DNA of 64,000 nucleotides, from IMG/VR virus record IMGVR_UViG_3300030329_003334, positions 30,022 through 94,021 of that record. One strand, written 5' to 3'. The notes under the pieces were generated by a model. That model did not search any database. It was not told where the DNA came from and saw nothing but the letters and a program-made list of their open reading frames with translations. Source of the DNA: a virus. Shown here piece after piece: positions 2 through 34,314 of this stretch. The translations under genes and the position numbers were made by a program. Position 1 is the stretch's first letter, and each line of letters starts with the position of its first letter.

Positions 2-3000
2 TTATTTGAATTTGATTCTGAAGGTAATATAAAACTAGATGAGTTTGGTAAACCTATTATTAAAGAAGATTTAGATTATAGAATTTTACAAAAAGATGTA
101 CATTATAAACAAGGTCCTAATGGAGAGAAGTTGATATTAGACGAAGATGGTTATCCGTTAGGAGAAATATTTAAGTTTAATAGTTTTGTAGGTTTGAATA
201 ATATTATAGGAATACGTTCTCATGTAAGTCCTAGAACAGGTAAGGGTTTTATTAAGAATTTAGGTATAGGTAATGCTGAGATTAAAGCTATTAATGGAGT
301 TATACAAAATACTTTAACTGATGAAATGTTACAACTTCAAGCTAATCCTGTATTTATGGCTCAAGTTTCTAAATTATGGGCATTAGCTAAAACTACTTAT
401 GCTACTAAAGAACATTTTATTATAGATTTTTTAGGTAATCAAAAAATATCTTTAGTAGAATCTCAAAATTGGTTTGCTGGTAATATAGCTGAGTTTAAGA
501 ATAAACAAGATAGTACTAAGAGAGCAAAACAAACTAATTCTCCTGGTATGAAACAAGCGGGTATATTTACTAATCCTATGTTTGGTGTTATTGTTATTAA
601 AGATTTAGTATTACCTTCTCAAGATATAGAAACAATAGCTACTACTCTTAAAGACGATATACAAAAAAGAAAGAATTATAAAGGAACTGATGCAGAATTT
701 AATATGGATAATATTATAGCAGAAAATCCTCAAAGTAGTCTTGAACGAGAAGTATATAGAATTGCTCGTCATTATTTAGCTATTAATACAGGTGATGCTC
801 AGGGTTATGTAAGCTGGGAAAGGTATAAAAGACAGCTTAAAGATAATGCTATGTGGAATGATGATATAGCATTGATTGTTAAAAAAATAGATAATGATGA
901 GTATATTACTCCTGAAGAGTTAAATGCTATTATGCAGCCTTTAAAAGGATTTTATTATAATAGATCTATTGATAAGAATACAAACAGATTAAGATCTAGA
1001 CAACTTAAATATTCTACGGTACCTTTGATTCCTCAATTAATTAAAGGCACAGATCTAGAGATTTTAGCAGATAAAATGGATGCATATGGTATAGACGAAA
1101 CTGTATTTGAATCTGCATCTAAAGTAGGTACTTTAAGTGTATTTAAACTTCATGACGAAAATGGTCGTATACTTCCTGATATATTTGAAGAGTTAGTTAT
1201 GGCAGATGAATTCCATGTAGAATTATTAGATAATAATAGATGGATGAGGCAGCAAGATGTTCCTACTAAATTAGAACAAGTTACTGGAACATTAGGTACT
1301 CAGATAAAAGATTTGATTTTTACTAATTTATCTAATGATTCTATATATAAAGTAGCATTTAGTGAAATTTCTTTTACAGGTAAAGAGTTATTACAAAAGA
1401 ATCTTGCTATAGCAGCAGCTAATATCGAAGAAGATGCTATGAATCTTTTAATGGAGATTGGGGCTGAAATAGTAGAAGATTCAACAGCAGTTGGAGGTAT
1501 ACGAGTTATATTTAAAAATAATAAGAAAGTAAGAGCTTTATTAATAAGAGAGTTAACTAAGAGAGGACTTAATGATAATTATATAAAAGCTATTTTACCT
1601 AAACCAGGTACAGATGAATTTAATTTACCTTTATTTTTCTCAGGAATGGCATCTAAATTTGAATCAGTATTACTTTCTTTATTTACAAATAATGTAACTA
1701 ATCAAAAGTTTCCAGGATTTACTTCTGTTCAATTTTCTGGAGCATTCTTTAGAACTGGTAAGAAAGCAAGCGAATCTGTTCAAGCTCTGAATGAAGAGAG
1801 AATGCAAGGAGTTGAATATATTGATGGACATGATGCAAGCCAAAGATTAAGAACTACTAGAGATTCTGAATCTGGAATTATAACAGCTGAAGTTATTGTA
1901 TCTCGTCCTAATATGTTTAATCGACCAGATGGTACTCCTATTCCTATTAATGAAATAGATCCTGAAGTATTAGAAATGATTGGGTATCGTATTCCTACTG
2001 AAGCTAAGCATTCTATGGTAGTATTTAAAGTAGTAGGATTTACTCCTGCAGCTACAGGTGATATAATTATTTTACCTGATGATATTATAGCTCAAACTGG
2101 ATCCGATTTTGATATTGATAAGATGCAAGTTATGGTATATACTTCTGAAAATGGTAAGAAGATTCACTATGATGATGATAAAAGTCCTTCGGAAAATAGT
2201 AGAGATCAGAGAAATAATGGTTTATTAGATACGTTTATGTCTGTATTAAAAAATAGATATCATTTATCAGAGATGTTAGATACAGGTAATTTTGATGATC
2301 TTAAAGAGATCAGAGAGGAGATGGATAATATTGATAATATAAAGGAAGAAACATTTGATATATCTTCATTTTCAGGACAAGATGAAATGCGTAAAAGAAA
2401 TATATCTGGTAGAATACTTAAAGGTATATCTGCTACATTTAATAAGTTTGGAGCTATTGCTCAAAATACTAAGATGGTTTTATCTGAACCTTTTATTTGG
2501 AAATATAGATTAACAGAAATAGATGAAGCATCTGGTATAGAAATTAAGAGAAATGTAGAAGATTTTAAAGCTAGATATGGTGAAGAAAATGTTAGAGTAG
2601 AAGGTGAGTTTATTATTGTTACACATGAATTAATAGGTTGGACTAGAGACAATACACATTTAAATGCAAATGGTGATTTAGTTCTTAAACATTCAGCTCA
2701 AGGTATTACTGGTGCTGTTGATATTAGTAGTGATCCTACATTTAGTTCTTTTAATGTAAAAGCTTTTACTTATCCTATGGTAGCTGCAGCTACTTTAGTA
2801 GGTATTCCTTGGAAAGATATAGCTTGGTTAACTAAACAACAGATTGTAAAAGAAGTACAAGATAAATACTATGAAGCTAGAGGTATTCTTGGGGATAATA
2901 CTCCTGTTCATCAAATAATTAGAGATATTAGAAATTCGTTTTTAAACGTATCTACTAATCCTACTTATCAAGGTAAATTATTTGCTTTATTATCTGATGA

Positions 3001-6000
3001 AAAACAAAAACAAATATTAACTTTATTAAATAGAGCTAAGAAAGGTGATATATCATGGTCAGATTACTTTAATAAAAGAGCAGAAATAATAGGTATTTCT
3101 GAAGAAGTTGTTCCTTTAAGTAAAAACGAATTGAAAGATTTATACTTAACAAGTAAAAATTTCGATAACTTAACTAAAGAAGAAAAAATAGAGTATTATA
3201 AAAAACAATTACAAGTATTAAATAATTTCGAATATTTTAGAAAAATAGGTAGTGCTGTTAGTTCTACAGTATCAATTACTAAAGCTGATACTATAGGAGC
3301 AGGACCACAAATGACTGTTACTTCTAATTTTGAACGGCAATTAGATTCTCATTTCGATAATGATGGTTCAATACAGGTTGAATTGGAAAATGGTGAATTA
3401 ATAGATGCTGCTTTAGCTTTGCATCCTTCTTATTTTGGTAGAGATGCAGAATCTGTATATCCTACTTTAGATACTGTATATAGATTCTCTAATCAATTAA
3501 GTATAAAATCTGTAGGACAACATTTTATAGAACAACATCCTAGTTTTAGAATGATACTAGATGGAGTTATGGAAACTTTAAGAGGAGATAGATTCTTTAA
3601 ATATGATGATAGAATAGAAGCGATAGTTAGAAATTGGGTAGTATCTTATCTTTTAAAAGATGCAGATATATTTAGTGATTTAAGTGATTCTGATAAAAGA
3701 GATATACTTGGAATTACTTCTAAAGAAGATAGAAATATAACATCTTTAGCTGAAGATATAGCTAGTATTCAAAAGAGATTTCCTAGTTTAGCACAATCAG
3801 ATGGTCATATATTAGCTTTTTTAAATCCTAAATTATCTGAAAAAGATAAAAAGAATAATAATGGTATAGAATTTATAGAAGTTAATGAAATACCTAAAGA
3901 TACTGTTATACAGAATCATATAAGTAGATCTCTTTTAAGAATGTATAGAGGCACTGCATTAGATGCTGATGGTAGATCTTTACCAGAAGATGTAAGAGAA
4001 GAATTACAAAGAATAGCTAAAAAGATTCTTCAATATGAATTTATAACTAGAGGATTAAACTTTGGACGTAATTCTTTAACTGAAGTTATTGATACTAATA
4101 TTAAATTGGACGAGCAATTAGGAGCGCATCTTGAAAGAAAATTACAGAGTTTTAATATGGGTAATGATCCTATGAAAACAGGTGAAGAAAATTTAAATGA
4201 ATTAATTCATAAAATTATACGAGCTAATTGGTTTAGACATGATATGGTTCCTAGAGTTAAAAGAAAAACTACTAAAGTATTACGTTGGGATAAGAAGACT
4301 AGACAATATCAAGGTAAAGTAGAAACTGTTAGAGGTACAGGTAATTGGGTTCCTAATAGAGATGGTATTATTGTAACTGAAGGCAGAAAAAAATTAGATA
4401 AAGAACCTCCTAATGTTAGAAATTCACAGTATGTATATGTTCCTATATATAAGAAAATTACTCGTGGTAAAAATAAAGGTAATTGGGTATTAGTTTCTGA
4501 TGTTTTATATATGCAATATGGAGAAGATCCTAGTACTGGAAAATTATATTGGATACCTGTGTCAAGGACTAGTCTTCCTGGTAAATTAATGGAGTTTGGT
4601 ACCAAATCTATTTTAGATACTAACGATCCATATAGAGAAGCTTTTCCTTTTTCTAACGAACAAGAGGCTATGGATTATATAGATGGTGTATTAAATGGTG
4701 ATATAGATAGACAACAAGTATTAGATGAAATAGAAGATACTCAACAAGCATCTAAACAAGGATATGGTATAACTGTTAGTGAGGCGCAAAAAAGAGCAAT
4801 AGAAATGATGGAAGATGGTGATCCTGATAAAATGAAAAAACTTATGGCTGCGTTTGAAAAAATGAGTCAAGGTGGCAAGGATAGGACTGATAAAATAATG
4901 AAGGCAATTGAAAAAGCAGATGAGAAAGATACTAATGCTCCTAAAGTTAAACAGATTAAGGCTGATCCTTCTTTTAAAATACACTCTAAATCTGGATATG
5001 CAGCTAGAACTGCGGAAAATACTAAGTCACATGCTACTATAGATTTTTCTTTTGATCCTAATGTAGGATCAGGAGGAGTAAGAGGTACTACAAAAATTAA
5101 TGTAGATAGGTTTAAACGTGAGTATATAGGTATTAGATTAGAATCAGATGGTACTATTCAAATAACTGATGAATTAGTTAAAGATATAGTTAATCAATTA
5201 AATAATGCTAATAAAGGCAAAGGAGCTGTAACTGTTAATATAGCGGGTCATGGTATAGCTAAAATGGCTAAACAAGGAGCTACTCAAAAACAATTAGATG
5301 ATTCAGTGTATAAATTAGTTAAACAAATATTAGCTCATCCTGATCTTAAGAATAAAAATATTAAGATAAATACAGGAGGACAGACAGGATTTGATGAAGC
5401 TGGTACTAAAGCAGCTATGAGATTAGGTATAGAGAATACTATTTTAGCTCCTAGAGGTTGGATGTTTAGAGATAAGGAAAATAATGATATTTCAGATGAA
5501 CATGAGTTTAAAGCTAGATTTGGTATAGAAGCACTTGCTTCTACAGTTAAAGAAAAGAAAAAAACACGTTCTATGCAACAAGAAGTAGGATTAACTAAAG
5601 TAGATTCTTTTCATAAATTTATTACAGAAGAAGGTTTTGTAAAAGTACCTCTTAAAAATTCTCAAAAAATGAAATATGATGTAAAAGGTTGGGAAGGTAT
5701 AGAGTTTTTTATAGAAACTGAAGGAAATAAAACTAGTGGTATTGTAACAGTATCTGAAGCTATAACAGGAGCTAGGGCAGTATCTGTTGAATATGGAAAA
5801 GATAAAAAGTCAAAGACTGCAAAAGAAGCAATATCTGAAGCTCGTAATCAAATGAAGGAAACAGCTAAAAAAGTTTCTTTTGATAAATTTAAAGCTACAA
5901 TAGAAAAACATATAAAGGATTATGGATTAAATCCAGCTTATAGAAAACAAGTAAAATCTGATCCAAGTAAAACAGAAAATCCTACTATGGATAAGATGTT

Positions 6001-6070
6001 AAAATTATTCGAACAACAACAGGTTGAGAAGAAGAAAAATGATGATAATTCAGAAACTAAATGTGATTAA
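2..6070 (+). CDS. Giant virion-associated DNA-dependent RNA polymerase (crAss/phi14:2 gp66-like), 5'-truncated by the window; C-terminal SLOG domain
   Basis: GYRIP (~1982) ... GSDFDIDK (~2099-2122) double-psi-barrel catalytic motif. The frame is open from base 2 (LFEFDSEG...), so the TTG start at 131 is an artefact of the window edge. Confidence 0.9.
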   Translation, partial: LFEFDSEGNIKLDEFGKPIIKEDLDYRILQKDVHYKQGPNGEKLILDEDGYPLGEIFKFNSFVGLNNIIGIRSHVSPRTGKGFIKNLGIGNAEIKAINGVIQNTLTDEMLQLQANPVFMAQVSKLWALAKTTYATKEHFIIDFLGNQKISLVESQNWFAGNIAEFKNKQDSTKRAKQTNSPGMKQAGIFTNPMFGVIVIKDLVLPSQDIETIATTLKDDIQKRKNYKGTDAEFNMDNIIAENPQSSLEREVYRIARHYLAINTGDAQGYVSWERYKRQLKDNAMWNDDIALIVKKIDNDEYITPEELNAIMQPLKGFYYNRSIDKNTNRLRSRQLKYSTVPLIPQLIKGTDLEILADKMDAYGIDETVFESASKVGTLSVFKLHDENGRILPDIFEELVMADEFHVELLDNNRWMRQQDVPTKLEQVTGTLGTQIKDLIFTNLSNDSIYKVAFSEISFTGKELLQKNLAIAAANIEEDAMNLLMEIGAEIVEDSTAVGGIRVIFKNNKKVRALLIRELTKRGLNDNYIKAILPKPGTDEFNLPLFFSGMASKFESVLLSLFTNNVTNQKFPGFTSVQFSGAFFRTGKKASESVQALNEERMQGVEYIDGHDASQRLRTTRDSESGIITAEVIVSRPNMFNRPDGTPIPINEIDPEVLEMIGYRIPTEAKHSMVVFKVVGFTPAATGDIIILPDDIIAQTGSDFDIDKMQVMVYTSENGKKIHYDDDKSPSENSRDQRNNGLLDTFMSVLKNRYHLSEMLDTGNFDDLKEIREEMDNIDNIKEETFDISSFSGQDEMRKRNISGRILKGISATFNKFGAIAQNTKMVLSEPFIWKYRLTEIDEASGIEIKRNVEDFKARYGEENVRVEGEFIIVTHELIGWTRDNTHLNANGDLVLKHSAQGITGAVDISSDPTFSSFNVKAFTYPMVAAATLVGIPWKDIAWLTKQQIVKEVQDKYYEARGILGDNTPVHQIIRDIRNSFLNVSTNPTYQGKLFALLSDEKQKQILTLLNRAKKGDISWSDYFNKRAEIIGISEEVVPLSKNELKDLYLTSKNFDNLTKEEKIEYYKKQLQVLNNFEYFRKIGSAVSSTVSITKADTIGAGPQMTVTSNFERQLDSHFDNDGSIQVELENGELIDAALALHPSYFGRDAESVYPTLDTVYRFSNQLSIKSVGQHFIEQHPSFRMILDGVMETLRGDRFFKYDDRIEAIVRNWVVSYLLKDADIFSDLSDSDKRDILGITSKEDRNITSLAEDIASIQKRFPSLAQSDGHILAFLNPKLSEKDKKNNNGIEFIEVNEIPKDTVIQNHISRSLLRMYRGTALDADGRSLPEDVREELQRIAKKILQYEFITRGLNFGRNSLTEVIDTNIKLDEQLGAHLERKLQSFNMGNDPMKTGEENLNELIHKIIRANWFRHDMVPRVKRKTTKVLRWDKKTRQYQGKVETVRGTGNWVPNRDGIIVTEGRKKLDKEPPNVRNSQYVYVPIYKKITRGKNKGNWVLVSDVLYMQYGEDPSTGKLYWIPVSRTSLPGKLMEFGTKSILDTNDPYREAFPFSNEQEAMDYIDGVLNGDIDRQQVLDEIEDTQQASKQGYGITVSEAQKRAIEMMEDGDPDKMKKLMAAFEKMSQGGKDRTDKIMKAIEKADEKDTNAPKVKQIKADPSFKIHSKSGYAARTAENTKSHATIDFSFDPNVGSGGVRGTTKINVDRFKREYIGIRLESDGTIQITDELVKDIVNQLNNANKGKGAVTVNIAGHGIAKMAKQGATQKQLDDSVYKLVKQILAHPDLKNKNIKINTGGQTGFDEAGTKAAMRLGIENTILAPRGWMFRDKENNDISDEHEFKARFGIEALASTVKEKKKTRSMQQEVGLTKVDSFHKFITEEGFVKVPLKNSQKMKYDVKGWEGIEFFIETEGNKTSGIVTVSEAITGARAVSVEYGKDKKSKTAKEAISEARNQMKETAKKVSFDKFKATIEKHIKDYGLNPAYRKQVKSDPSKTENPTMDKMLKLFEQQQVEKKKNDDNSETKCD

Positions 6071-6072
6071 AT

Positions 6073-9000
6073 ATGGCATGTAGATTAATAATAAAAGCTA
6101 AGAATGGTAAAGATAGTAAATTATTTAATGATTTGAATGATATATTTGGGGAAGAGTATGCTAAAAATTTATATGCTTTAGCTAACACAGATATATTTAA
6201 AACATGGTTAGCAAATAAATATGAATCTCCAGATTTCTCTTATAAGTATGATAACAATGGAGAAATAGAATATAGAGCGATCTTAGAATTTTCTGAAAGT
6301 TATGATACTACTCCTATTAGCATGGCACGAGAATCTAGTAAAAATACAACTAGAAAAATAAATTTACTTAAACAAACATTTAGAAATGTAGGTATTAATG
6401 TTAGTATTATAGAAGATTATGATATAGTAGGAAGAGCTCAGGTAGATCCTGCCACTGATGAGAATCAAGCTGTTATTAGACTTAATCCTGATAAAGTATT
6501 TAAAGATACAATTATACATGAATTTGGTCATATATATGTAGATCTACTTGGAGAGGATCATCCTCTTGTTATAGCTGGTATAAACCAACTTAAGAATACT
6601 GAATTATGGAAACAGGTAGAAGCAGCTTATCCTCATTTAACTCCTAATAAATTAGCTAAGGAAGTATTAGTAACTGCTATTGGAAGAGAAGGTGCTGAAA
6701 TTTTTGATACACAACGAGATCAGAGTAGGTTTCAAAGGGTACTTAATGCTATTTTTTCAGCTATATCTAGAGTATTAGGATTAAATAGTTCTAATATTGC
6801 TAAAAGATTAGCTACAGAAATGCTTAACCAAAATCTTCAAAGAAATTTATCTGGAAAATTATCTGACTATACACAGCATTCTATTAATGTAGAAGAAGGA
6901 TTAAATCAAAAAGAACTTAATAAATATTTAAGTAATAAAATAGGTAATTTACATAAACAAATACGTAAGTTTAAATCTATTGCTCCTGAATTTTCTGAAA
7001 GTTTAAAAGATATAGTTGATGAAATACAAAAAGCAGATACTCATGAACAATTAGAAAAGTTAAATACATATATATCTAGTACTTTAGGACGTGTTATTCA
7101 AATAGAAGATGACAATGGAAATGTGGTAGAAAGAGCAACAGGTATTGAAGGTCGTCTTATAGAAGTGGAAAATATGCTGGATGAAATTGATAGATTAAAA
7201 AACGCTGTCGCGGTAAAAGAATTAAATGGTAAACAATTAAGTCAAGAAGATATTAATAGATTAGAAGAGGATATTAAAGTGAAATTAATGTCAGTTATTA
7301 GATCTTTATATCATGCTAATGTTATGGTAGACTCTTTTAATGATATATCTGATTTAGATGATAGAGCAGAATATCCTCCTGTTATAAAAAAAGCAATACG
7401 AAGCTTACAAGATAATATAGGAAAAATAGCTAAATTAAGAGCAAGAAGTATAAGATTAGGTAAAAGAGCTTTTATAACGCAACTTAAAGAATATACTTCT
7501 AATAAAGAAATATTAGATAATGCTGAAAATATATTTGAAAATAATTTTGATGAATCTGGGACTCAGCGTTGGATGGATGCTTTAGCTGATACAAATCATT
7601 CTTTTATAGCTTTAGTAAGAAAAAGAGTAGCTGAAGAATTAGACAAGAAAAGATTAGATGTTATAAGATTAAAGAGAGAGTGGGAAGATGAAGTAAAAAT
7701 TCTTAAACAAAATGGTATAAAATTAGAAGACTTTTTTGAAGAAGTAGATGGAATCAAAACAGGTCGTTTTATACAAGAATATGATGAGGCTGAGTTTTAT
7801 AGGTTAAAATCAGAAATGTTTGATAGGTATTTTAGTTTAATGAATAGAGCTAATGCTTTAGCTAAAGGTACTAAAGAAAGAAGCGAATTACTTAAAGAAG
7901 CTAAGAAATTAATTAGAGATTTTTATCAAGAAAATACACAACCTATTGAAAATTGGCAACAAATAGTTGAAGCTAAAAAAGCAAAATTATCTCCTGAAAG
8001 ATTCGAACAATGGTTAAAAGATAATTTTTATAGTGGACGTGGAGGCAGGTTATATCCTAGAGGTAAAGAAGTTGTTGAAATGAAAAAAGAAAAATTTCGT
8101 AATCCTAAATTTGATATTTTAATGTCTGATCCAGTTAAAAAAAGGTTTTATGAATATTACCAACGTCTTATAAACGAATTAACAGCGCACAGTAATAATG
8201 ATTTTTTAAGACGAGGATTTTTACCTGCTGTTCCTCTAGATCAGAGAAACTATATACAAGCTTTAAGAGATAATGTAGGTTGGAGAACTTTACAAGAAGA
8301 ACAAGAAGAATTTCAAGAAGATGAAGCTAAAGAAGTATTAGTAGATGAAACTGGTAAAGTAATTAATTTCATACCTTTCTATTATATGACTAAATTAGAT
8401 CAATTAGATTTAAAAGATATAAATAATGAAAGTCTTACTAATGAAGAAATAGAGGAGAGAATAAAAGAAAATAAAAAAATTAGAGAAGAAAATAAAAGAA
8501 GACATGCAGAAAGATTAGATTTTAATCTAGAAAAAACTATGCCTCGTTTTATAGATACGGCTTTAAATCATAGAGCTAAAACAGCTATGGAGGAAGAAGT
8601 ATTATTTGCTAGAGAAATATTGACTCATACTCAAATAAGAAAAAAGACAGGAAGTATATTAGGAAGAGGTAAAAGAGTTATAGATAAAACTTTTAAGCAA
8701 GATATGAATGAAGATAGAGATGCAACTGATGATGCATCAGAGTCTAATATATTAAAACATTTTGATGATTGGATACAGATGGTGTTTTATGAAAAATTTG
8801 AAGAAGACGAAGGTGCTTGGACTAAAGCTTCTAGAGTATTACAAAATTGGGCCTCTCTTAGAGGTATTGGTTGGAATGTATTTTCTGGTATAAATAATAA
8901 GATGTATGGATTTATGCAAACTCATATAGAAGCAGCGGGTAGTCAGTTTTTTGGTTATTCAGAATATAGGAAAGCAAGTTCAGATTATTATGCTAATATA

Positions 9001-10209
9001 CATGAGTATTTAATGGAAGGAATTACTTCTAGTGTAAAAGGAGAAGAATCTAATGTATTTTCTTCTAATAGTAAAGCAGGAGGATTAATGGTTATGTTTG
9101 ATATATTACAATCTCAAGATGAATTAGCTGAGCAAGCGGGAGGGCCTGAAAGATCTAAATTACATAAATTTAAGTTCTTTACAGATTCTGCTTATGCGAT
9201 GCAACATATTGGAGAACATAGTATGCAAAATATTACTATGTTAGCTATGCTTAGAAGATATAAAGTAGATCCTAGTAATGGAAAAATTTATAGAAATTCT
9301 GAAGCATATGCTAGAAAAAATGGATTATCTTATAATACTCCTGAAGAGAAAGCAGATATTCAAAAGAAATTTAAAGAGCTAGAATCTGTATACGATGTAT
9401 ATGAATTAGTAGATGGTTATACACAACTTAAAAAAGGAAGATTTATATCTGATAAAGAATGGTCTGAATTTAGACAAGAAATTATAGGTGTAAATCAATA
9501 TATGCATGGTATTTATAATAAAGAAGATGCGGGCGCCATGCAAAAATATGGTCTTGCAAGATTAGCAATACAATTTAGAAAATGGGCCCGTCCTGGATGG
9601 AACCGTAGATGGGGTAGTAAATTTGGACAATCTTATTGGAATGAAAGACGTAATATGTTAGATGAAGGTATGTATGTAACTACAGCTAAATTTACATGGC
9701 AATTATTAAAAGACTATAGAAACTTTTTTAGTAATTCTAAATTAAATTGGGATAGTCTCGATGAAACACAGAAAGCAAATGTTAAACGATCAGCTATGGA
9801 ATTATTACTTCTAATTAGTGTTATATTATTTACTCAAATGCTAAAAGGAATGGAAGAAGAAGACGATGATTTAAAAGAAAGTAAAGCATTTAATATTCTT
9901 ATGTATCAATCAGATAGATTATGGACTGAAATAGCTACTTATTCTCCTGTATACGGTTGGTTTAATGAGGCTAGTAAGTTAATGCAATCTCCTACTGCTT
10001 CTTGGAATATGGTTGAAGATGTATATAAATTAGCTTATAATACTTTTGCTTATCCATTTAGAACTGAAAAAGAAAGAATATTTAAATCTGGCGTTAATTA
10101 TGGAGATGATAAAATAAATACATATCTTAGAAAATCTGTTCCTTTATATAATCAAGTAGGTAGATGGAATAGATTAGAAAAACATAATAAATTTTATAAA
10201 CTATTCTAA
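6073..10209 (+). CDS. Large virion cargo/ejection protein with N-terminal zincin metallopeptidase motif
   Basis: DTIIHEFGH (HExxH at 6517-6531) followed by KEVLV; 1378 aa; lies directly after the RNAP as in crAss-like cargo clusters; hydrophobic segment near the C-terminus. Confidence 0.7.
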   Translation: MACRLIIKAKNGKDSKLFNDLNDIFGEEYAKNLYALANTDIFKTWLANKYESPDFSYKYDNNGEIEYRAILEFSESYDTTPISMARESSKNTTRKINLLKQTFRNVGINVSIIEDYDIVGRAQVDPATDENQAVIRLNPDKVFKDTIIHEFGHIYVDLLGEDHPLVIAGINQLKNTELWKQVEAAYPHLTPNKLAKEVLVTAIGREGAEIFDTQRDQSRFQRVLNAIFSAISRVLGLNSSNIAKRLATEMLNQNLQRNLSGKLSDYTQHSINVEEGLNQKELNKYLSNKIGNLHKQIRKFKSIAPEFSESLKDIVDEIQKADTHEQLEKLNTYISSTLGRVIQIEDDNGNVVERATGIEGRLIEVENMLDEIDRLKNAVAVKELNGKQLSQEDINRLEEDIKVKLMSVIRSLYHANVMVDSFNDISDLDDRAEYPPVIKKAIRSLQDNIGKIAKLRARSIRLGKRAFITQLKEYTSNKEILDNAENIFENNFDESGTQRWMDALADTNHSFIALVRKRVAEELDKKRLDVIRLKREWEDEVKILKQNGIKLEDFFEEVDGIKTGRFIQEYDEAEFYRLKSEMFDRYFSLMNRANALAKGTKERSELLKEAKKLIRDFYQENTQPIENWQQIVEAKKAKLSPERFEQWLKDNFYSGRGGRLYPRGKEVVEMKKEKFRNPKFDILMSDPVKKRFYEYYQRLINELTAHSNNDFLRRGFLPAVPLDQRNYIQALRDNVGWRTLQEEQEEFQEDEAKEVLVDETGKVINFIPFYYMTKLDQLDLKDINNESLTNEEIEERIKENKKIREENKRRHAERLDFNLEKTMPRFIDTALNHRAKTAMEEEVLFAREILTHTQIRKKTGSILGRGKRVIDKTFKQDMNEDRDATDDASESNILKHFDDWIQMVFYEKFEEDEGAWTKASRVLQNWASLRGIGWNVFSGINNKMYGFMQTHIEAAGSQFFGYSEYRKASSDYYANIHEYLMEGITSSVKGEESNVFSSNSKAGGLMVMFDILQSQDELAEQAGGPERSKLHKFKFFTDSAYAMQHIGEHSMQNITMLAMLRRYKVDPSNGKIYRNSEAYARKNGLSYNTPEEKADIQKKFKELESVYDVYELVDGYTQLKKGRFISDKEWSEFRQEIIGVNQYMHGIYNKEDAGAMQKYGLARLAIQFRKWARPGWNRRWGSKFGQSYWNERRNMLDEGMYVTTAKFTWQLLKDYRNFFSNSKLNWDSLDETQKANVKRSAMELLLLISVILFTQMLKGMEEEDDDLKESKAFNILMYQSDRLWTEIATYSPVYGWFNEASKLMQSPTASWNMVEDVYKLAYNTFAYPFRTEKERIFKSGVNYGDDKINTYLRKSVPLYNQVGRWNRLEKHNKFYKLF

Positions 10210-31402: not shown

Positions 31403-31707
31403 TAAAGAGTACACAATAGTAATGTCCCACAGAGTTATTACTTCAGTGTGGAACTGTGTTTGTCCTCTCCATTACTATTGTGATTACTCTTTATGTTATT
31501 GCTATACTATATTAATGTATAGTGTTGTATGTTGTATTAAAAAACAAGTGAAATACCCCTGTTGAGAGGTATAACACTCGTTTTTGTTCAGATTAAGCAT
31601 TAACTGTTCGATTCTTAACCAAATCAATGGAAGAACGGATGCATAGCTTCCGTATAATCTGTTATATTCTACTTATAGTAGTAAGAGTTTGAGCAAAGCT
31701 CTCTTAC
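31403..31707 (-). ncRNA. Array of long hairpins after the first early gene
   Basis: 22-bp near-perfect stem (31403-31424/31470-31493); stem 31540-31585 with G-U pairs only on the minus strand; GTAAGAG/CTCTTAC. Confidence 0.6.
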
Positions 31708-31946
31708 GAGAACTTTAACCACGTGAACTCAATCACTTCACCAGTTTCTTCGTCCGTGACTGAAGAGACTTCAGTGTGAACTTTAGTTGCGCCTTCAATA
31801 TTGAGATAGTCGCCTATCTCAGGATTGATGCCTTCCTTCAAGTTGGTGAAGCCAACTGTAGATTGAATAATGTCACCCATTTGTTGCTCAACGGCAACAG
31901 TGGCTGCTTTGCCACTTTCTGATACATACAAAACTTTTGCTTTCAT
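31704..31946 (-). CDS. First early gene, small acidic beta-rich protein
   Basis: 80 aa; GC and codon usage visibly different from neighbours. Confidence 0.65.
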   Translation of the reverse strand: MKAKVLYVSESGKAATVAVEQQMGDIIQSTVGFTNLKEGINPEIGDYLNIEGATKVHTEVSSVTDEETGEVIEFTWLKFS

Positions 31947-32100
31947 AATTTCGATTTTAGAATTTCATACGGGGACTATCCCCGCACAAAACTGAGTGGG
32001 AGTCTTTGATAGTGGTGGTTTATGATCTCGAATATATATATATTTTTATTTTTTTTCTTCAAAATTTTTTTTTAGAATTTTTTTATTGTATATTTGCATA
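31947..32100. promoter_or_regulatory. Divergent early/late switch region (candidate virion-RNAP promoter/leader, genome end or origin)
   Basis: Strand switch; GC-rich GGGGACTATCCC...GGGAGTC hairpin, then (AT)n and poly-T tracts. Confidence 0.5.
32089..32096 (+). promoter_or_regulatory. Bacteroidota sigma-A -7 element
   Basis: TATATTTG matches TAnnTTTG; -33 box weak. Confidence 0.5.
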
Positions 32101-32103
32101 TCA

Positions 32104-32303
32104 TTAGTTTATAACTAAGACACCTCGCCAGGAGAAAAAAGGGTTTAATGAAGCGGGGCAACTACGTCTTATGATATATACAAATCATACTATATATCAC
32201 AACTGTTCTTAATTGAACAGAAAAGATCCATGGAGATCTCTTCTTCGGAAGTTCTTGGGAAAATTCAAACGGCACAAAAAAATCGGGTGGGGGATAAGGT
32301 GTC
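32104..32303 (+). ncRNA. About 200-nt structured RNA candidate just downstream of a host-type promoter
   Basis: GACACCT/AGGTGTC closing stem; TGATATATA/TATATATCA, CTGTTC/GAACAG, AGATC/GATCT and CTTC-TTCG-GAAG (cUUCGg) hairpins; no ORF in the supplied track. Confidence 0.6.
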
Positions 32304-32339
32304 GTGTATCTAGTAGAAGTATAAATACTTAATAAAAGT

Positions 32340-32370
32340 TTTGGTAATTAAAATAAATGTTATATATTTG
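32340..32370 (+). promoter_or_regulatory. Consensus Bacteroidota housekeeping promoter (-33/-7) for the late operon
   Basis: TTTG (32340-32343)-N19-TATATTTG (32363-32370). Confidence 0.8.
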
Positions 32371-32393
32371 CATTGAATTGCTATATAATAGTT

Positions 32394-32771
32394 ATGAAAA
32401 GATTGAAGAAACAGAATGTTAATAGAAAAGAGTTCTACCCACAATATCTTAAATTAGTAAATGTGATATTGCCTAAACCTCTTACTGCAAAGGAGATTGA
32501 AATACTGTCTGCTTTTATGGAGTTAGAGGGGGATTTAGTGGAAAGTGATAGATTCGGAACTCAGGCTAGAAAACTTGTTAGGGAGAAATTTGGGTTTAAG
32601 AAACATTCTAATATAGACAATTATATAAAATATTTTAAAAGAAAGGGGATTTTGTATATTGATAAATCTGATAATAAGTTAAAAGTTATTGGAAGTATTG
32701 ATATACCTAAAGAAGAAAAAGAAGTCGAGTTATCATTTAATTTTACATTTAGTGATGGAGGAAATAAGTAA
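32394..32771 (+). CDS. Putative winged-helix transcription regulator
   Basis: LTAKEIEILSAF...RKLVREKFG..SNIDNYIKYFKRKGIL; ATG at 32394 preferred over TTG at 32373. Confidence 0.55.
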   Translation: MKRLKKQNVNRKEFYPQYLKLVNVILPKPLTAKEIEILSAFMELEGDLVESDRFGTQARKLVREKFGFKKHSNIDNYIKYFKRKGILYIDKSDNKLKVIGSIDIPKEEKEVELSFNFTFSDGGNK

Positions 32772-32985
32772 AAATACTGGAATAGATAGTCTTATCCAAA
32801 TGGGTAAAGAAGAAGCCATTGAAAAAAGAGGTAATGCAAAGTTTTTAATTATAAATCCTTTAGGGTCTATGGTTTTAAAAGAAATACTAGCACTTGAAGA
32901 TACTATGGAATTACCTAAGTTTTATAAGGGATTAGAGGTAGTTTATACAATAGATCAGTATGAAGAAGTCGCAAGAGTTTATTAA
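32755..32985 (+). CDS. Hypothetical protein (start revised to MEEISK)
   Basis: ATG overlapping the end of the upstream gene. Confidence 0.55.
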   Translation: MEEISKNTGIDSLIQMGKEEAIEKRGNAKFLIINPLGSMVLKEILALEDTMELPKFYKGLEVVYTIDQYEEVARVY

Positions 32986-33220
32986 AAATTTGGCAGAAGA
33001 GAAAAATTTACCTATCTTTGCAATAGATAAAGTTATTAAGCATCAATTTAGATTCTTAAAAAAATGTATGCAGAGTGATGAATTACCTAATATTTATTTA
33101 AAAAATTTAGGGAGATTTAAGGTAAAGTTAAAAAGATTAGAATGGATGATAGAGCAAATAGATGATAAAAAAGAATTAGATAAACTAAATAAAGCAAAAA
33201 ATGCCAGGGAAAAAAAATAA
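32960..33220 (+). CDS. HU/IHF-like DNA-binding protein
   Basis: EFIKNLAEEKNL...IYLKNLGRFKVK. Confidence 0.7.
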   Translation: MKKSQEFIKNLAEEKNLPIFAIDKVIKHQFRFLKKCMQSDELPNIYLKNLGRFKVKLKRLEWMIEQIDDKKELDKLNKAKNAREKK

Positions 33221-33434
33221 TGATATAAGTAATGAAGCTATAAATTTAGCTACTACTTATTGGGAGAGTAAAAAAAATGATTCATCTAGTTTATTACTTG
33301 ATCTTATAGAAGACGCTGCAGATGATACTATGGAAAGATATGAAGCTAAAATGAGAAAAGCTGTAAATGAATTTCATCAAGCTAATGATATATTAACTAT
33401 TTTAAATAACGTAAAAAATGACAGAAAAAAATAA
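33201..33434 (+). CDS. Hypothetical protein
   Basis: Overlapping small ORF. Confidence 0.55.
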   Translation: MPGKKNNDISNEAINLATTYWESKKNDSSSLLLDLIEDAADDTMERYEAKMRKAVNEFHQANDILTILNNVKNDRKK

Positions 33435-33654
33435 ATGCTATTATGATTTTACAAGGAATTTACCGCCAGAAGATGGTATAAGTATGGTTATGTGTGGAAA
33501 AGGAAGTTGTAAATGTCCTGCTGTGAATATACATAAAGAATTAGAAAAAGTAGTTTTAGGTGGAGAAGAAGAAGGATATAGTGTATGGACGAAAGAACAA
33601 TTTAAAATAATGGTAGAAAATATTAAAAAAGGAGAATTCGATGAGTATATTTAA
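33418..33654 (+). CDS. Small Cys-containing protein
   Basis: CGKGSCKCP...TKEQF..MV..IKKGEFD, DUF397-like pattern. Confidence 0.55.
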   Translation: MTEKNKCYYDFTRNLPPEDGISMVMCGKGSCKCPAVNIHKELEKVVLGGEEEGYSVWTKEQFKIMVENIKKGEFDEYI

Positions 33655-34036
33655 AAACATTAAAGACGGCTGGACTAATTATATGAAAGCCTTTGGAGAC
33701 TATCACGGAGAAAAGGTAAGTCCTCAAGTAGAAAAGATAGCTAGAGAAAGAGCTGATATTTGTAAAGGATGTCCTGAATTAAAAGAATCAGGATTTTATA
33801 AACTAGTAGATAAAGTAATAAATAGAATAGACGGCACGAAAGATCATAAAAAGGTTTTACATCGTGCTGAAACTCCTACAGTAGCTGATGAAAGCATGTG
33901 GGATGGAAGAACGTATAAGTGTGGACAATGTGGTTGTCAATTTCCTGCTAATGTATATTCTCCTGGTAAAACGTGTCCTATGGGTAAATGGGATGCATAT
34001 GAATTAGAAAATAACCAAGATTTAAACGTAGGATAA
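33641..34036 (+). CDS. Zinc-ribbon protein
   Basis: RADICKGC...CGQCGC...CPMGKW. Confidence 0.65.
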   Translation: MSIFKNIKDGWTNYMKAFGDYHGEKVSPQVEKIARERADICKGCPELKESGFYKLVDKVINRIDGTKDHKKVLHRAETPTVADESMWDGRTYKCGQCGCQFPANVYSPGKTCPMGKWDAYELENNQDLNVG

Positions 34037-34314
34037 TGAAAACAAATATTGAAATGGTAGGTAATAATATATTAGTATATATAGAATTGCCTAAAACAGA
34101 AACAGAATCAGGAATACAATTAACAGAGCAAACAGCTTCAACACTAAATAGAGATATAGTTGGAGAAGTAATGGCTATAGGACCTGAAGTTAATAATTTT
34201 TCTACAGGAGATAAGATTTTATTACCTCCTCATGGAAATACACCTATTAGTTATAAAGGCGAGGTTTATCATGTATTTAGAGAAACAAGTTTATTTGCTA
34301 AAGTAAATGGATAA
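34036..34314 (+). CDS. groES: Co-chaperonin GroES (Cpn10)
   Basis: GNNILV...KTETESGIQL...GEVMAIGP...GDKIL...YHVFRE. Confidence 0.85.
   Translation: MKTNIEMVGNNILVYIELPKTETESGIQLTEQTASTLNRDIVGEVMAIGPEVNNFSTGDKILLPPHGNTPISYKGEVYHVFRETSLFAKVNG

Follow-up and report, generated by a model that had tools for sequence, protein, structure and literature searches.

The divergent gap between the two main gene blocks of this phage carries a structured, non-coding RNA element of roughly 200 bases (~32100-32305, + strand). Positions are those of the window, the whole 64,000-nucleotide stretch analysed here, taken from a 94,021-bp IMG/VR virus record (bases 30022-94021) that has direct terminal repeats. 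The RNA is a previously undescribed family, no Rfam family or literature description having been found for it, within the broad kind of orphan phage-borne structured RNAs. Among the sequences recovered, the family is shared by uncultured crAss-like phages of marine origin and by a few mobile elements of Chitinophaga and, judged from its alignments, seven helices are maintained by selection through compensatory changes. We favour the view that it is a stable, folded RNA that acts in trans, made by the host RNA polymerase and binding a conserved host or phage factor, and we put the probability of this at about 0.5. An initial annotation of this DNA had proposed a discrete RNA, structured and non-coding, that has a host-type promoter to itself at the boundary of two gene blocks; fold and promoters are both conserved in relatives, and the element does lie where the coding strand switches, between the leftward block of replication genes and the rightward one.

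The covariance model used throughout (R1) was built from the window copy and its three nearest relatives (four sequences), and finds the element as a single copy in the whole 94-kb genome. The element stands at the head of the rightward block and is divergent from the replication block (Table 1), whose family-A DNA polymerase shares ~30% identity with the polymerases of gut crAss-like phages. The rightward block opens with small genes, the first of which, the 125-aa protein gene, is the usual downstream neighbour of the RNA. In Flavobacterium phage FpV4, a distant cultured relative, the homologous block continues into an endolysin and a large terminase. The segment had been described as free of open reading frames, and this holds in substance: those listed within it encode only 33-39 aa and none is conserved, the relatives varying by indels and compensatory changes.

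Table 1. Window coordinates of the RNA element, its promoters and the surrounding genes
Feature	Position	Strand	Description
Two giant ORFs	2-10209	+	Precede the leftward block
Leftward (replication) block	10310-31946	-	Holds family-A DNA polymerase and helicase
80-aa gene	31704-31946	-	First gene of the divergent leftward block
Divergent gap, 447 nt	31947-32393		Site of the RNA element
Promoter P1	32086-32096	+	TTG and Bacteroidota -7 box TATATTTG (32089-32096), read from the sequence
P0, 5' hairpin UUAGUU-UAU-AACUAA	32104-32118	+	Abuts the conserved GAYAC
5' domain	32119-32169	+	GACAC, helix Ha, loop CAGGAGAAAA...AAUGAAG, then CAACUACGUCU
Helix Ha	32123-28 with 32153-58	+	Covariation
Candidate pseudoknot LR, 5' strand	32129-32135	+	Pairs with 32252-32258
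HP1 hairpin	32172-32199	+	Variable; missing from some lineages
HP2 hairpin	32203-32220	+	Palindromic loop UUAAUU; missing from some lineages
HP3 hairpin	32224-32239	+	GG-containing loop (CAUGGA in the window copy)
HP4 hairpin	32240-32251	+	c-UUCG-g loop in the window copy
UUCUUGGG (3' strand of the candidate pseudoknot), then conserved AAAAUUCAAAC	32252-32270	+	
3' hairpin GGCAC/GUGUC	32271-75 with 32299-303	+	Encloses conserved G-rich loop GGGUGGGGGAUAAG (32285-32298)
Promoter P2	32340-32370	+	-33 TTTG 32340-43, 19 nt, -7 TATATTTG 32363-70; ATG 32394
Rightward block	ATG at 32394	+	Opens with small genes
125-aa protein gene	32394-32771	+	phrog_16323, weak winged-helix hint; first protein gene of the rightward block

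Several features of the neighbourhood deserve mention in their own right. Nucleic-acid-binding and chaperone genes are likely at the start of the rightward block (32394-34311), where an 86-aa protein has a sub-threshold HU/IHF-like match and a 92-aa protein (34036-34311) is a Cpn10/GroES homolog (E = 1.6e-11). The 80-aa gene on the other side of the gap has 43-45% G+C, compared with 25-30% in its surroundings, and matches nothing among the Pfam or PHROG families. Between that gene and the RNA, the motif GTGG(G/C)..(A/C)(T/C)GA(T/C)CTCGAA(T/A)A at 32005-32040, which reads TTCGAGATCATAAACCACC on the - strand, occurs once in the window and keeps its position in several relatives. It lies ~30-50 nt upstream of 31987, where a metatranscriptome contig of the 80-aa gene ends, and is a candidate promoter of the leftward early/replication block, with the virion RNA polymerase perhaps its user. 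In FpV4 (L066, 1-400), three copies of a AATAAGTGAGGGGTTTTGA-like repeat precede gp01 and resemble ACTGAGTGGGAGTCTTTGA at window positions 31990-32010.

The RNA family comprises about 30 distinct sequences from viral and metagenome contigs, ranging in size from ~170 to 260 nt. A clearly homologous element, in which compensatory changes are visible, lies upstream at loci encoding relatives of the 125-aa protein, and further lineages were obtained by DNA-pattern scans of viral and metagenome contigs and by a profile-based search with the 125-aa protein family. In two lineages, other genes stand between the RNA and the 125-aa gene. A covariance search at the same locus in other Crassvirales had been suggested as a check, and it returns a conserved fold: at each related locus, R1 gives exactly one match (54-237 bits), which invariably shares its strand with the downstream gene. 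A score of 232 bits is obtained for the window copy, but this is one of the four sequences from which R1 was built; it shows the full family signature of GAYAC, a 6-bp helix, the loop A-GA-AA...AUGA, GC-NN-CUACG, the hairpins and the G-rich 3' hairpin. Its closest relative (237 bits) is on NZCU01000008.1 (L100, 7754 bp), part of a 'Nanoarchaeota archaeon' MAG. The viral contig IMGVR_UViG_2785511176_000002 is also 7754 bp long and has identical match coordinates, and NZCU01000008.1 is most likely a mis-binned phage contig.

Most of the pair counts come from an alignment of 25 sequences fitted to the model (A10). Within its helices, 97.8% of cells hold standard pairs, as against 68% in shuffled controls and 32-42% when the partners are slid; 29 of 33 pairs have changed on both sides (4-8 when slid), and the covariation score is 0.58 (0.05-0.10 when slid). 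The four hairpins of the initial annotation are all present and all covary across relatives. HP1 (helices 2 and 3) is 93-100% paired with six of its seven pairs changed on both sides, HP2 (helix 4) 95% paired with five of six, HP3 (helix 5) 98% paired with all five, and HP4 (helix 6) 96% paired with all four. The 3' hairpin (helix 7) is paired in 100% of cells with four of five pairs changed on both sides, and its relatives form a compensatory series from CAC/GUG through CUC/GAG to CCGC/GCGG. Because A10 was fitted to the model, the helix Ha was tested again on 27 distinct 5' domains in a plain MAFFT alignment that was not fitted to any structure (A11); there it is 100% paired, with 5/6 pairs changed on both sides, while slid controls reach 34-50%.

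Two details of the fold as first drawn fared less well. The cUUCGg tetraloop is present in HP4 of the window copy, but loop sequence and stem length of this hairpin differ among lineages and UUCG is not conserved. The closing stem GACACCT/AGGTGTC (32119-25 with 32297-303) can form in the window phage, but across the family it is 73.5% paired, compared with a shuffle mean of 70.4%, and one pair has changed on both sides; its arms have better covarying partners, the 5' arm overlapping Ha and the 3' arm lying in the local GGCAC/GUGUC hairpin. Two other pairings were also set aside. An alternative closing helix of GAYAC with GURU just 3' of the last hairpin is 62% paired, which equals the shuffle level, and a local hairpin CCA.../...UGG within the Ha loop, predicted by RNAalifold from four sequences, requires a GGU that is not conserved in the wider sampling.

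Pairs of the G-U type outnumber A-C pairs in the family by 26 to 10 (in Ha alone, 10 U-G and no A-C), which identifies the + strand as the RNA strand. Folding of the single sequence is not significant on the + strand (z = -1.64) and is better on the - strand (z = -3.0); the evidence for the fold is comparative.

The 5' domain is the most conserved part of the element, with the consensus GAYAC, a 6-bp helix, the loop AAGAAAA...AUGAAG and then CNACUACGUC. All members of the phage family have Ha, HP3, HP4 and the G-rich 3' hairpin, while HP1 and HP2 are dispensable in some lineages. At the position of P0, which lies outside the covariance model, a hairpin of lineage-specific sequence is predicted in most lineages. 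The HP2 loop (32209-32214) keeps its palindrome in many lineages, and loop-loop dimerisation could be conceived. More than 20 loop nucleotides are invariant and are kept across hosts as far apart as Flavobacteriia-type phages and Chitinophagia, which suggests a specific three-dimensional fold and a conserved partner. In addition, the A-rich 5' part of the Ha loop and the U-rich-GG segment after HP4 (the LR segments) are complementary in 24 of 25 homologs, with a mean z of -2.25 relative to shuffles; examples are CCCAUGAAAA/UUUUUAUGGG in L104 and CCAU/AUGG in L007. This pairing (32129-35 with 32252-58) would form a pseudoknot, which we grade as a candidate because covariation there is limited.

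Scanning with a pattern of the 5' domain extended the family beyond these phages, matching 32 viral stretches, including 98-kb and 112-kb contigs with a different 3' part, and two Chitinophaga genomes. With R2, a short covariance model restricted to the 5' domain, three Chitinophagaceae genomes and the 98-kb phage contig give scores of 59-71 bits, and the bacterial copies, when inspected by eye, apparently follow the same plan (hairpins, a U-run then GGG, and a G-rich segment). The crAss-like setting assumed at the outset is right in that the RNA is conserved in crAss-like phages, but it proves too narrow, since the 5' domain also occurs in Chitinophagaceae elements and in the tRNA-rich 98-kb contig. 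The Chitinophagaceae copies adjoin serine recombinases, or two tyrosine integrases and an AAA_24 gene, or an ApeA HEPN gene. About 3-4 of 151 genomes of the family Chitinophagaceae match R2, two of them weakly, and in a sample of the phylum the query genome is alone among 151 genomes. Such sporadic occurrence in bacteria speaks for a gene of mobile elements, not a host housekeeping RNA.

In Chitinophaga ginsengisoli DSM 18107 (NZ_PYGK01000017.1; L099/L111), the RNA lies ~300-400 nt upstream of a co-directional ApeA-type HEPN defence gene, with a tRNA gene nearby on the opposite strand, and a defence island or a hot spot for integration may be situated here. The RNA of Chitinophaga sp. CF118 has its next sizeable genes on the opposite strand. 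The 98-kb viral contig (L112, G003:C1:12000-30000; 75% complete by CheckV) has at least 19 tRNA genes in an 18-kb stretch, and the RNA lies on the strand of the first 18-tRNA run, ~190 nt past its last gene, tRNA-Arg. Depending on context, the downstream gene encodes the 125-aa protein, a membrane protein or ApeA, or there is no co-directional gene; a search for a protein neighbour common to the phage and bacterial copies found none. Among better known phages, the family was not encountered. Neither the region nor a second family member had a blastn homolog in 50,697 GenBank phage records, phi14:2 and FpV4 contain no match to either R1 or R2, and Fpv1 contains none to R1. FpV4 and Fpv1 do possess a homolog of the neighbouring 125-aa protein.

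The promoter that had been proposed at 32089 is supported by its conservation. P1 contains the only exact TTGTATATTTG in the window, and in most homologs a TAnnTTTG-type box lies 16-35 nt upstream of GAYAC, with T-runs before the box and P0 after it; some such box is kept upstream of nearly every copy. From general knowledge of promoter geometry, transcription would start a few bases downstream of P1, near 32100-32104. The second full promoter that had been noted ahead of the protein genes is likewise sustained. P2 has the canonical Bacteroidota geometry, and relatives retain a TAnnTTTG box immediately before the 125-aa gene, also where another gene comes ahead of it. Most lineages inspected have a second TAnnTTTG box between the RNA and the next gene, whatever that gene may be.

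No intrinsic terminator was found in 31500-32900, and in the absence of one 3' of the RNA, transcripts from P1 may read through into the genes. In the lineage represented by L046/L051/L064, a short membrane-peptide ORF begins ~16 nt beyond the 3' hairpin and no promoter intervenes, so that the RNA would be a leader there. One marine metatranscriptome run contains near-identical phage contigs at 31659-31987 (the 80-aa gene) and at ~34.0, 36.9 and 48.6-50 kb, and none over 32002-32668, a gap that cannot show absence of transcription since these are contigs. The stand-alone status of the RNA and its timing in infection, which the initial annotation took to be late, are inferred.

Several observations lead us to favour action in trans: the RNA keeps its own promoter, a second promoter usually follows it, the downstream genes are unrelated, and it occurs in a tRNA cluster and in bacteria without a large co-directional gene. 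The host RNA polymerase would transcribe the RNA as its own unit, and the product, folded into a stable particle, would act by binding some conserved factor of the host or the phage. Among classes of partner, the translation or transcription machinery, or a defence protein, would be the most plausible, and the RNA would then be neither an mRNA leader nor an antisense RNA. Weighing against this are the lack of a terminator 3' of the RNA in the window and the ORF that directly follows it in L046/L051/L064; further points on this side are that phage and bacterial copies have no conserved protein neighbour in common and that most pair counts come from a model-fitted alignment.

The first two of these points keep alive a rather unlikely alternative, namely that the element is a cis-acting leader of the rightward operon. 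Carried at the 5' end of P1 transcripts, it would modify the elongating polymerase or sense a signal, through processive antitermination like that of HK022 put and Bacillus EAR, or as a riboswitch or attenuator; it would thereby set the read-through from P1 into the ~30-60-kb structural block, a property that P2 transcripts would not have. The RNA invariably opens a long co-directional gene block, and its conserved, pseudoknot-type 5' domain resembles the architecture of an aptamer. A leader, however, does not readily account for the conserved promoter before the next gene in most lineages, the unrelated downstream genes across contexts, the position within a tRNA cluster of the 98-kb contig, or the opposite orientation of the next sizeable genes in Chitinophaga sp. 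CF118. Neither a riboswitch or leader family (Rfam) nor an expression platform was found, the scanned interval having no terminator-like site.

It is improbable that the RNA is a base-pairing regulatory sRNA, whose conserved loops would pair with phage or host mRNAs and alter their translation or stability. Its own promoter, its conserved single-stranded loops and its size would all suit an sRNA, but six loop segments compared with the 75 translation-start regions of the window gave no outlier (best z -3.8). Moreover, a seed-type sRNA would need far less invariant sequence and far fewer helices, and the same loops are found in phages and in Chitinophaga elements that have no neighbour genes in common.

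We consider a role as a replication-origin RNA to be somewhat more improbable still. Here a promoter-driven transcript beside an AT-rich tract would remain hybridised through its G-rich 3' segment and so serve as a primer for DNA synthesis, like ColE1 RNA II and the origin transcripts of T4. The conserved G-rich run does lie near the 3' end, (AT)n and T-runs occur at 32040-32085, the DNA 3' of the RNA is also AT-rich, and the strand switch is where the cumulative GC skew turns. The skew turn is not independent evidence, however, because the gene strand changes at the same place; the copies beside integrases and after a tRNA array would be odd places for an origin, and no tie to any replication protein was found.

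It is very improbable that the element is a virion-associated RNA, whether a packaging RNA like the pRNA of phi29 or some other. The element is, like pRNA, a promoter-driven phage RNA of similar size, and the self-complementary HP2 loop could mediate loop-loop dimers, but HP2 is missing in several lineages, no Rfam model of pRNA or any other is matched, copies occur in integrated bacterial elements, and the syntenic FpV4, in which no such RNA was found, has a large terminase of the ordinary kind downstream. Finally, N4-type virion polymerases use DNA hairpin promoters and the element adjoins the early block, but that its hairpins act as DNA (for instance as extruded promoters for a virion RNA polymerase), or that its conservation is not RNA-related, is hardly credible given the strand asymmetry of its G-U and A-C pairs, seven covarying helices and conserved loops over 200 nt, a host-type promoter that points into the element, and bacterial copies that show no virion polymerase nearby.

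The complexity of the RNA is of particular interest. Few conserved RNAs combine many helices, a likely pseudoknot and dozens of invariant loop nucleotides, and those that have been solved have usually turned out to be ribozymes, riboswitches or the cores of RNA-protein machines. We tentatively suggest, as a bolder and distinctly less probable proposal, that the family is a new class of complex-folded RNA common to lytic crAss-like phages, tRNA-rich large phages and integrated Bacteroidota elements, and that it may be a ribozyme, or else the RNA core of a particle by which a core host machine, for example the ribosome, RNA polymerase or an RNA-targeting defence, is reprogrammed or blocked. If true, this would be a biochemical role without a described counterpart. 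The crAss-like phages are a major group of Bacteroidota phages whose transcription programme is only partly understood, and the RNA sits at the control point between their early and structural gene blocks. Since the family is present in the named and sequenced Chitinophaga sp. CF118 and C. ginsengisoli DSM 18107, bench study becomes possible for an RNA otherwise known from uncultured phages only.

Comparison with catalogued families, which the initial annotation had put forward as a check, produced no match to Rfam 15 (4227 families): a scan of 31500-32900 with a permissive E-value returned only chance-level hits (E 0.8-9, bits far below gathering), and the Chitinophaga and 98-kb phage-contig copies likewise gave only chance-level hits. 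ARAGORN detected no tRNA or tmRNA gene in the whole window, and a literature search for a described structured RNA of crAss-like phages yielded nothing specific. Resemblances noted by eye to the twister and hammerhead ribozymes, the CR-I region of RNase P and CRISPR repeats were not supported by the Rfam models. A complementarity of the G-rich loop and AAGGUG to the 3' end of 16S rRNA, also noted by eye, was dropped because the GUG sits in a covarying stem.

Some known RNAs nevertheless share features with the family. Like 6S RNA, it would be a stable RNA of ~180-200 nt that could bind RNA polymerase; 6S RNA, however, is a rod with a central bubble, whereas covariation gives the window RNA a multi-branched fold of seven helices, and no Rfam 6S model matches. 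The phi29 pRNA (about 120-174 nt) is also a promoter-driven, multi-helix phage RNA at a module boundary. It belongs to a different type of phage with different packaging genes, its model is not matched, and the window family occurs in integrated bacterial elements as well. As for interlocking loops like those of pRNA, the HP2 loop UUAAUU of the window family is self-complementary in many members, but HP2 is absent in several lineages. HK022 put and Bacillus EAR are processive antitermination RNAs and, as folded RNAs that start a long operon, could be compared with the window RNA in acting on the transcribing polymerase. They have no similarity to it in sequence or structure, and the window family differs in that it usually has a promoter before the genes and also occurs without a co-directional operon. 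GOLLD and ROOL are large structured RNAs of phages and prophages that often lie beside tRNA genes. They too are orphan, complex-folded phage or prophage RNAs, and one lineage of the window family lies just after a tRNA array; they differ in being 3-4 times larger (500-800 nt, compared with ~170-260 nt), in belonging to other bacterial groups and in having Rfam models that the window family does not match.

The nearest parallel by host and phage type is found in phi14:2, a crAss-like phage of a marine Bacteroidota host that also makes non-coding RNA (g004-g006 region). RNA-seq of this phage revealed two long intergenic non-coding regions that are transcribed above most genes, from the first time point and persistently, with function unknown (bioRxiv 10.1101/2020.03.07.982082). 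These transcripts have no described structure or family and no R1 or R2 homolog, and they differ from the window RNA in lying inside the early (replicative-direction) block, ~3-4.6 kb from the junction, in a non-coding region of ~1.7 kb. They are a precedent for the window RNA, not a homolog of it.
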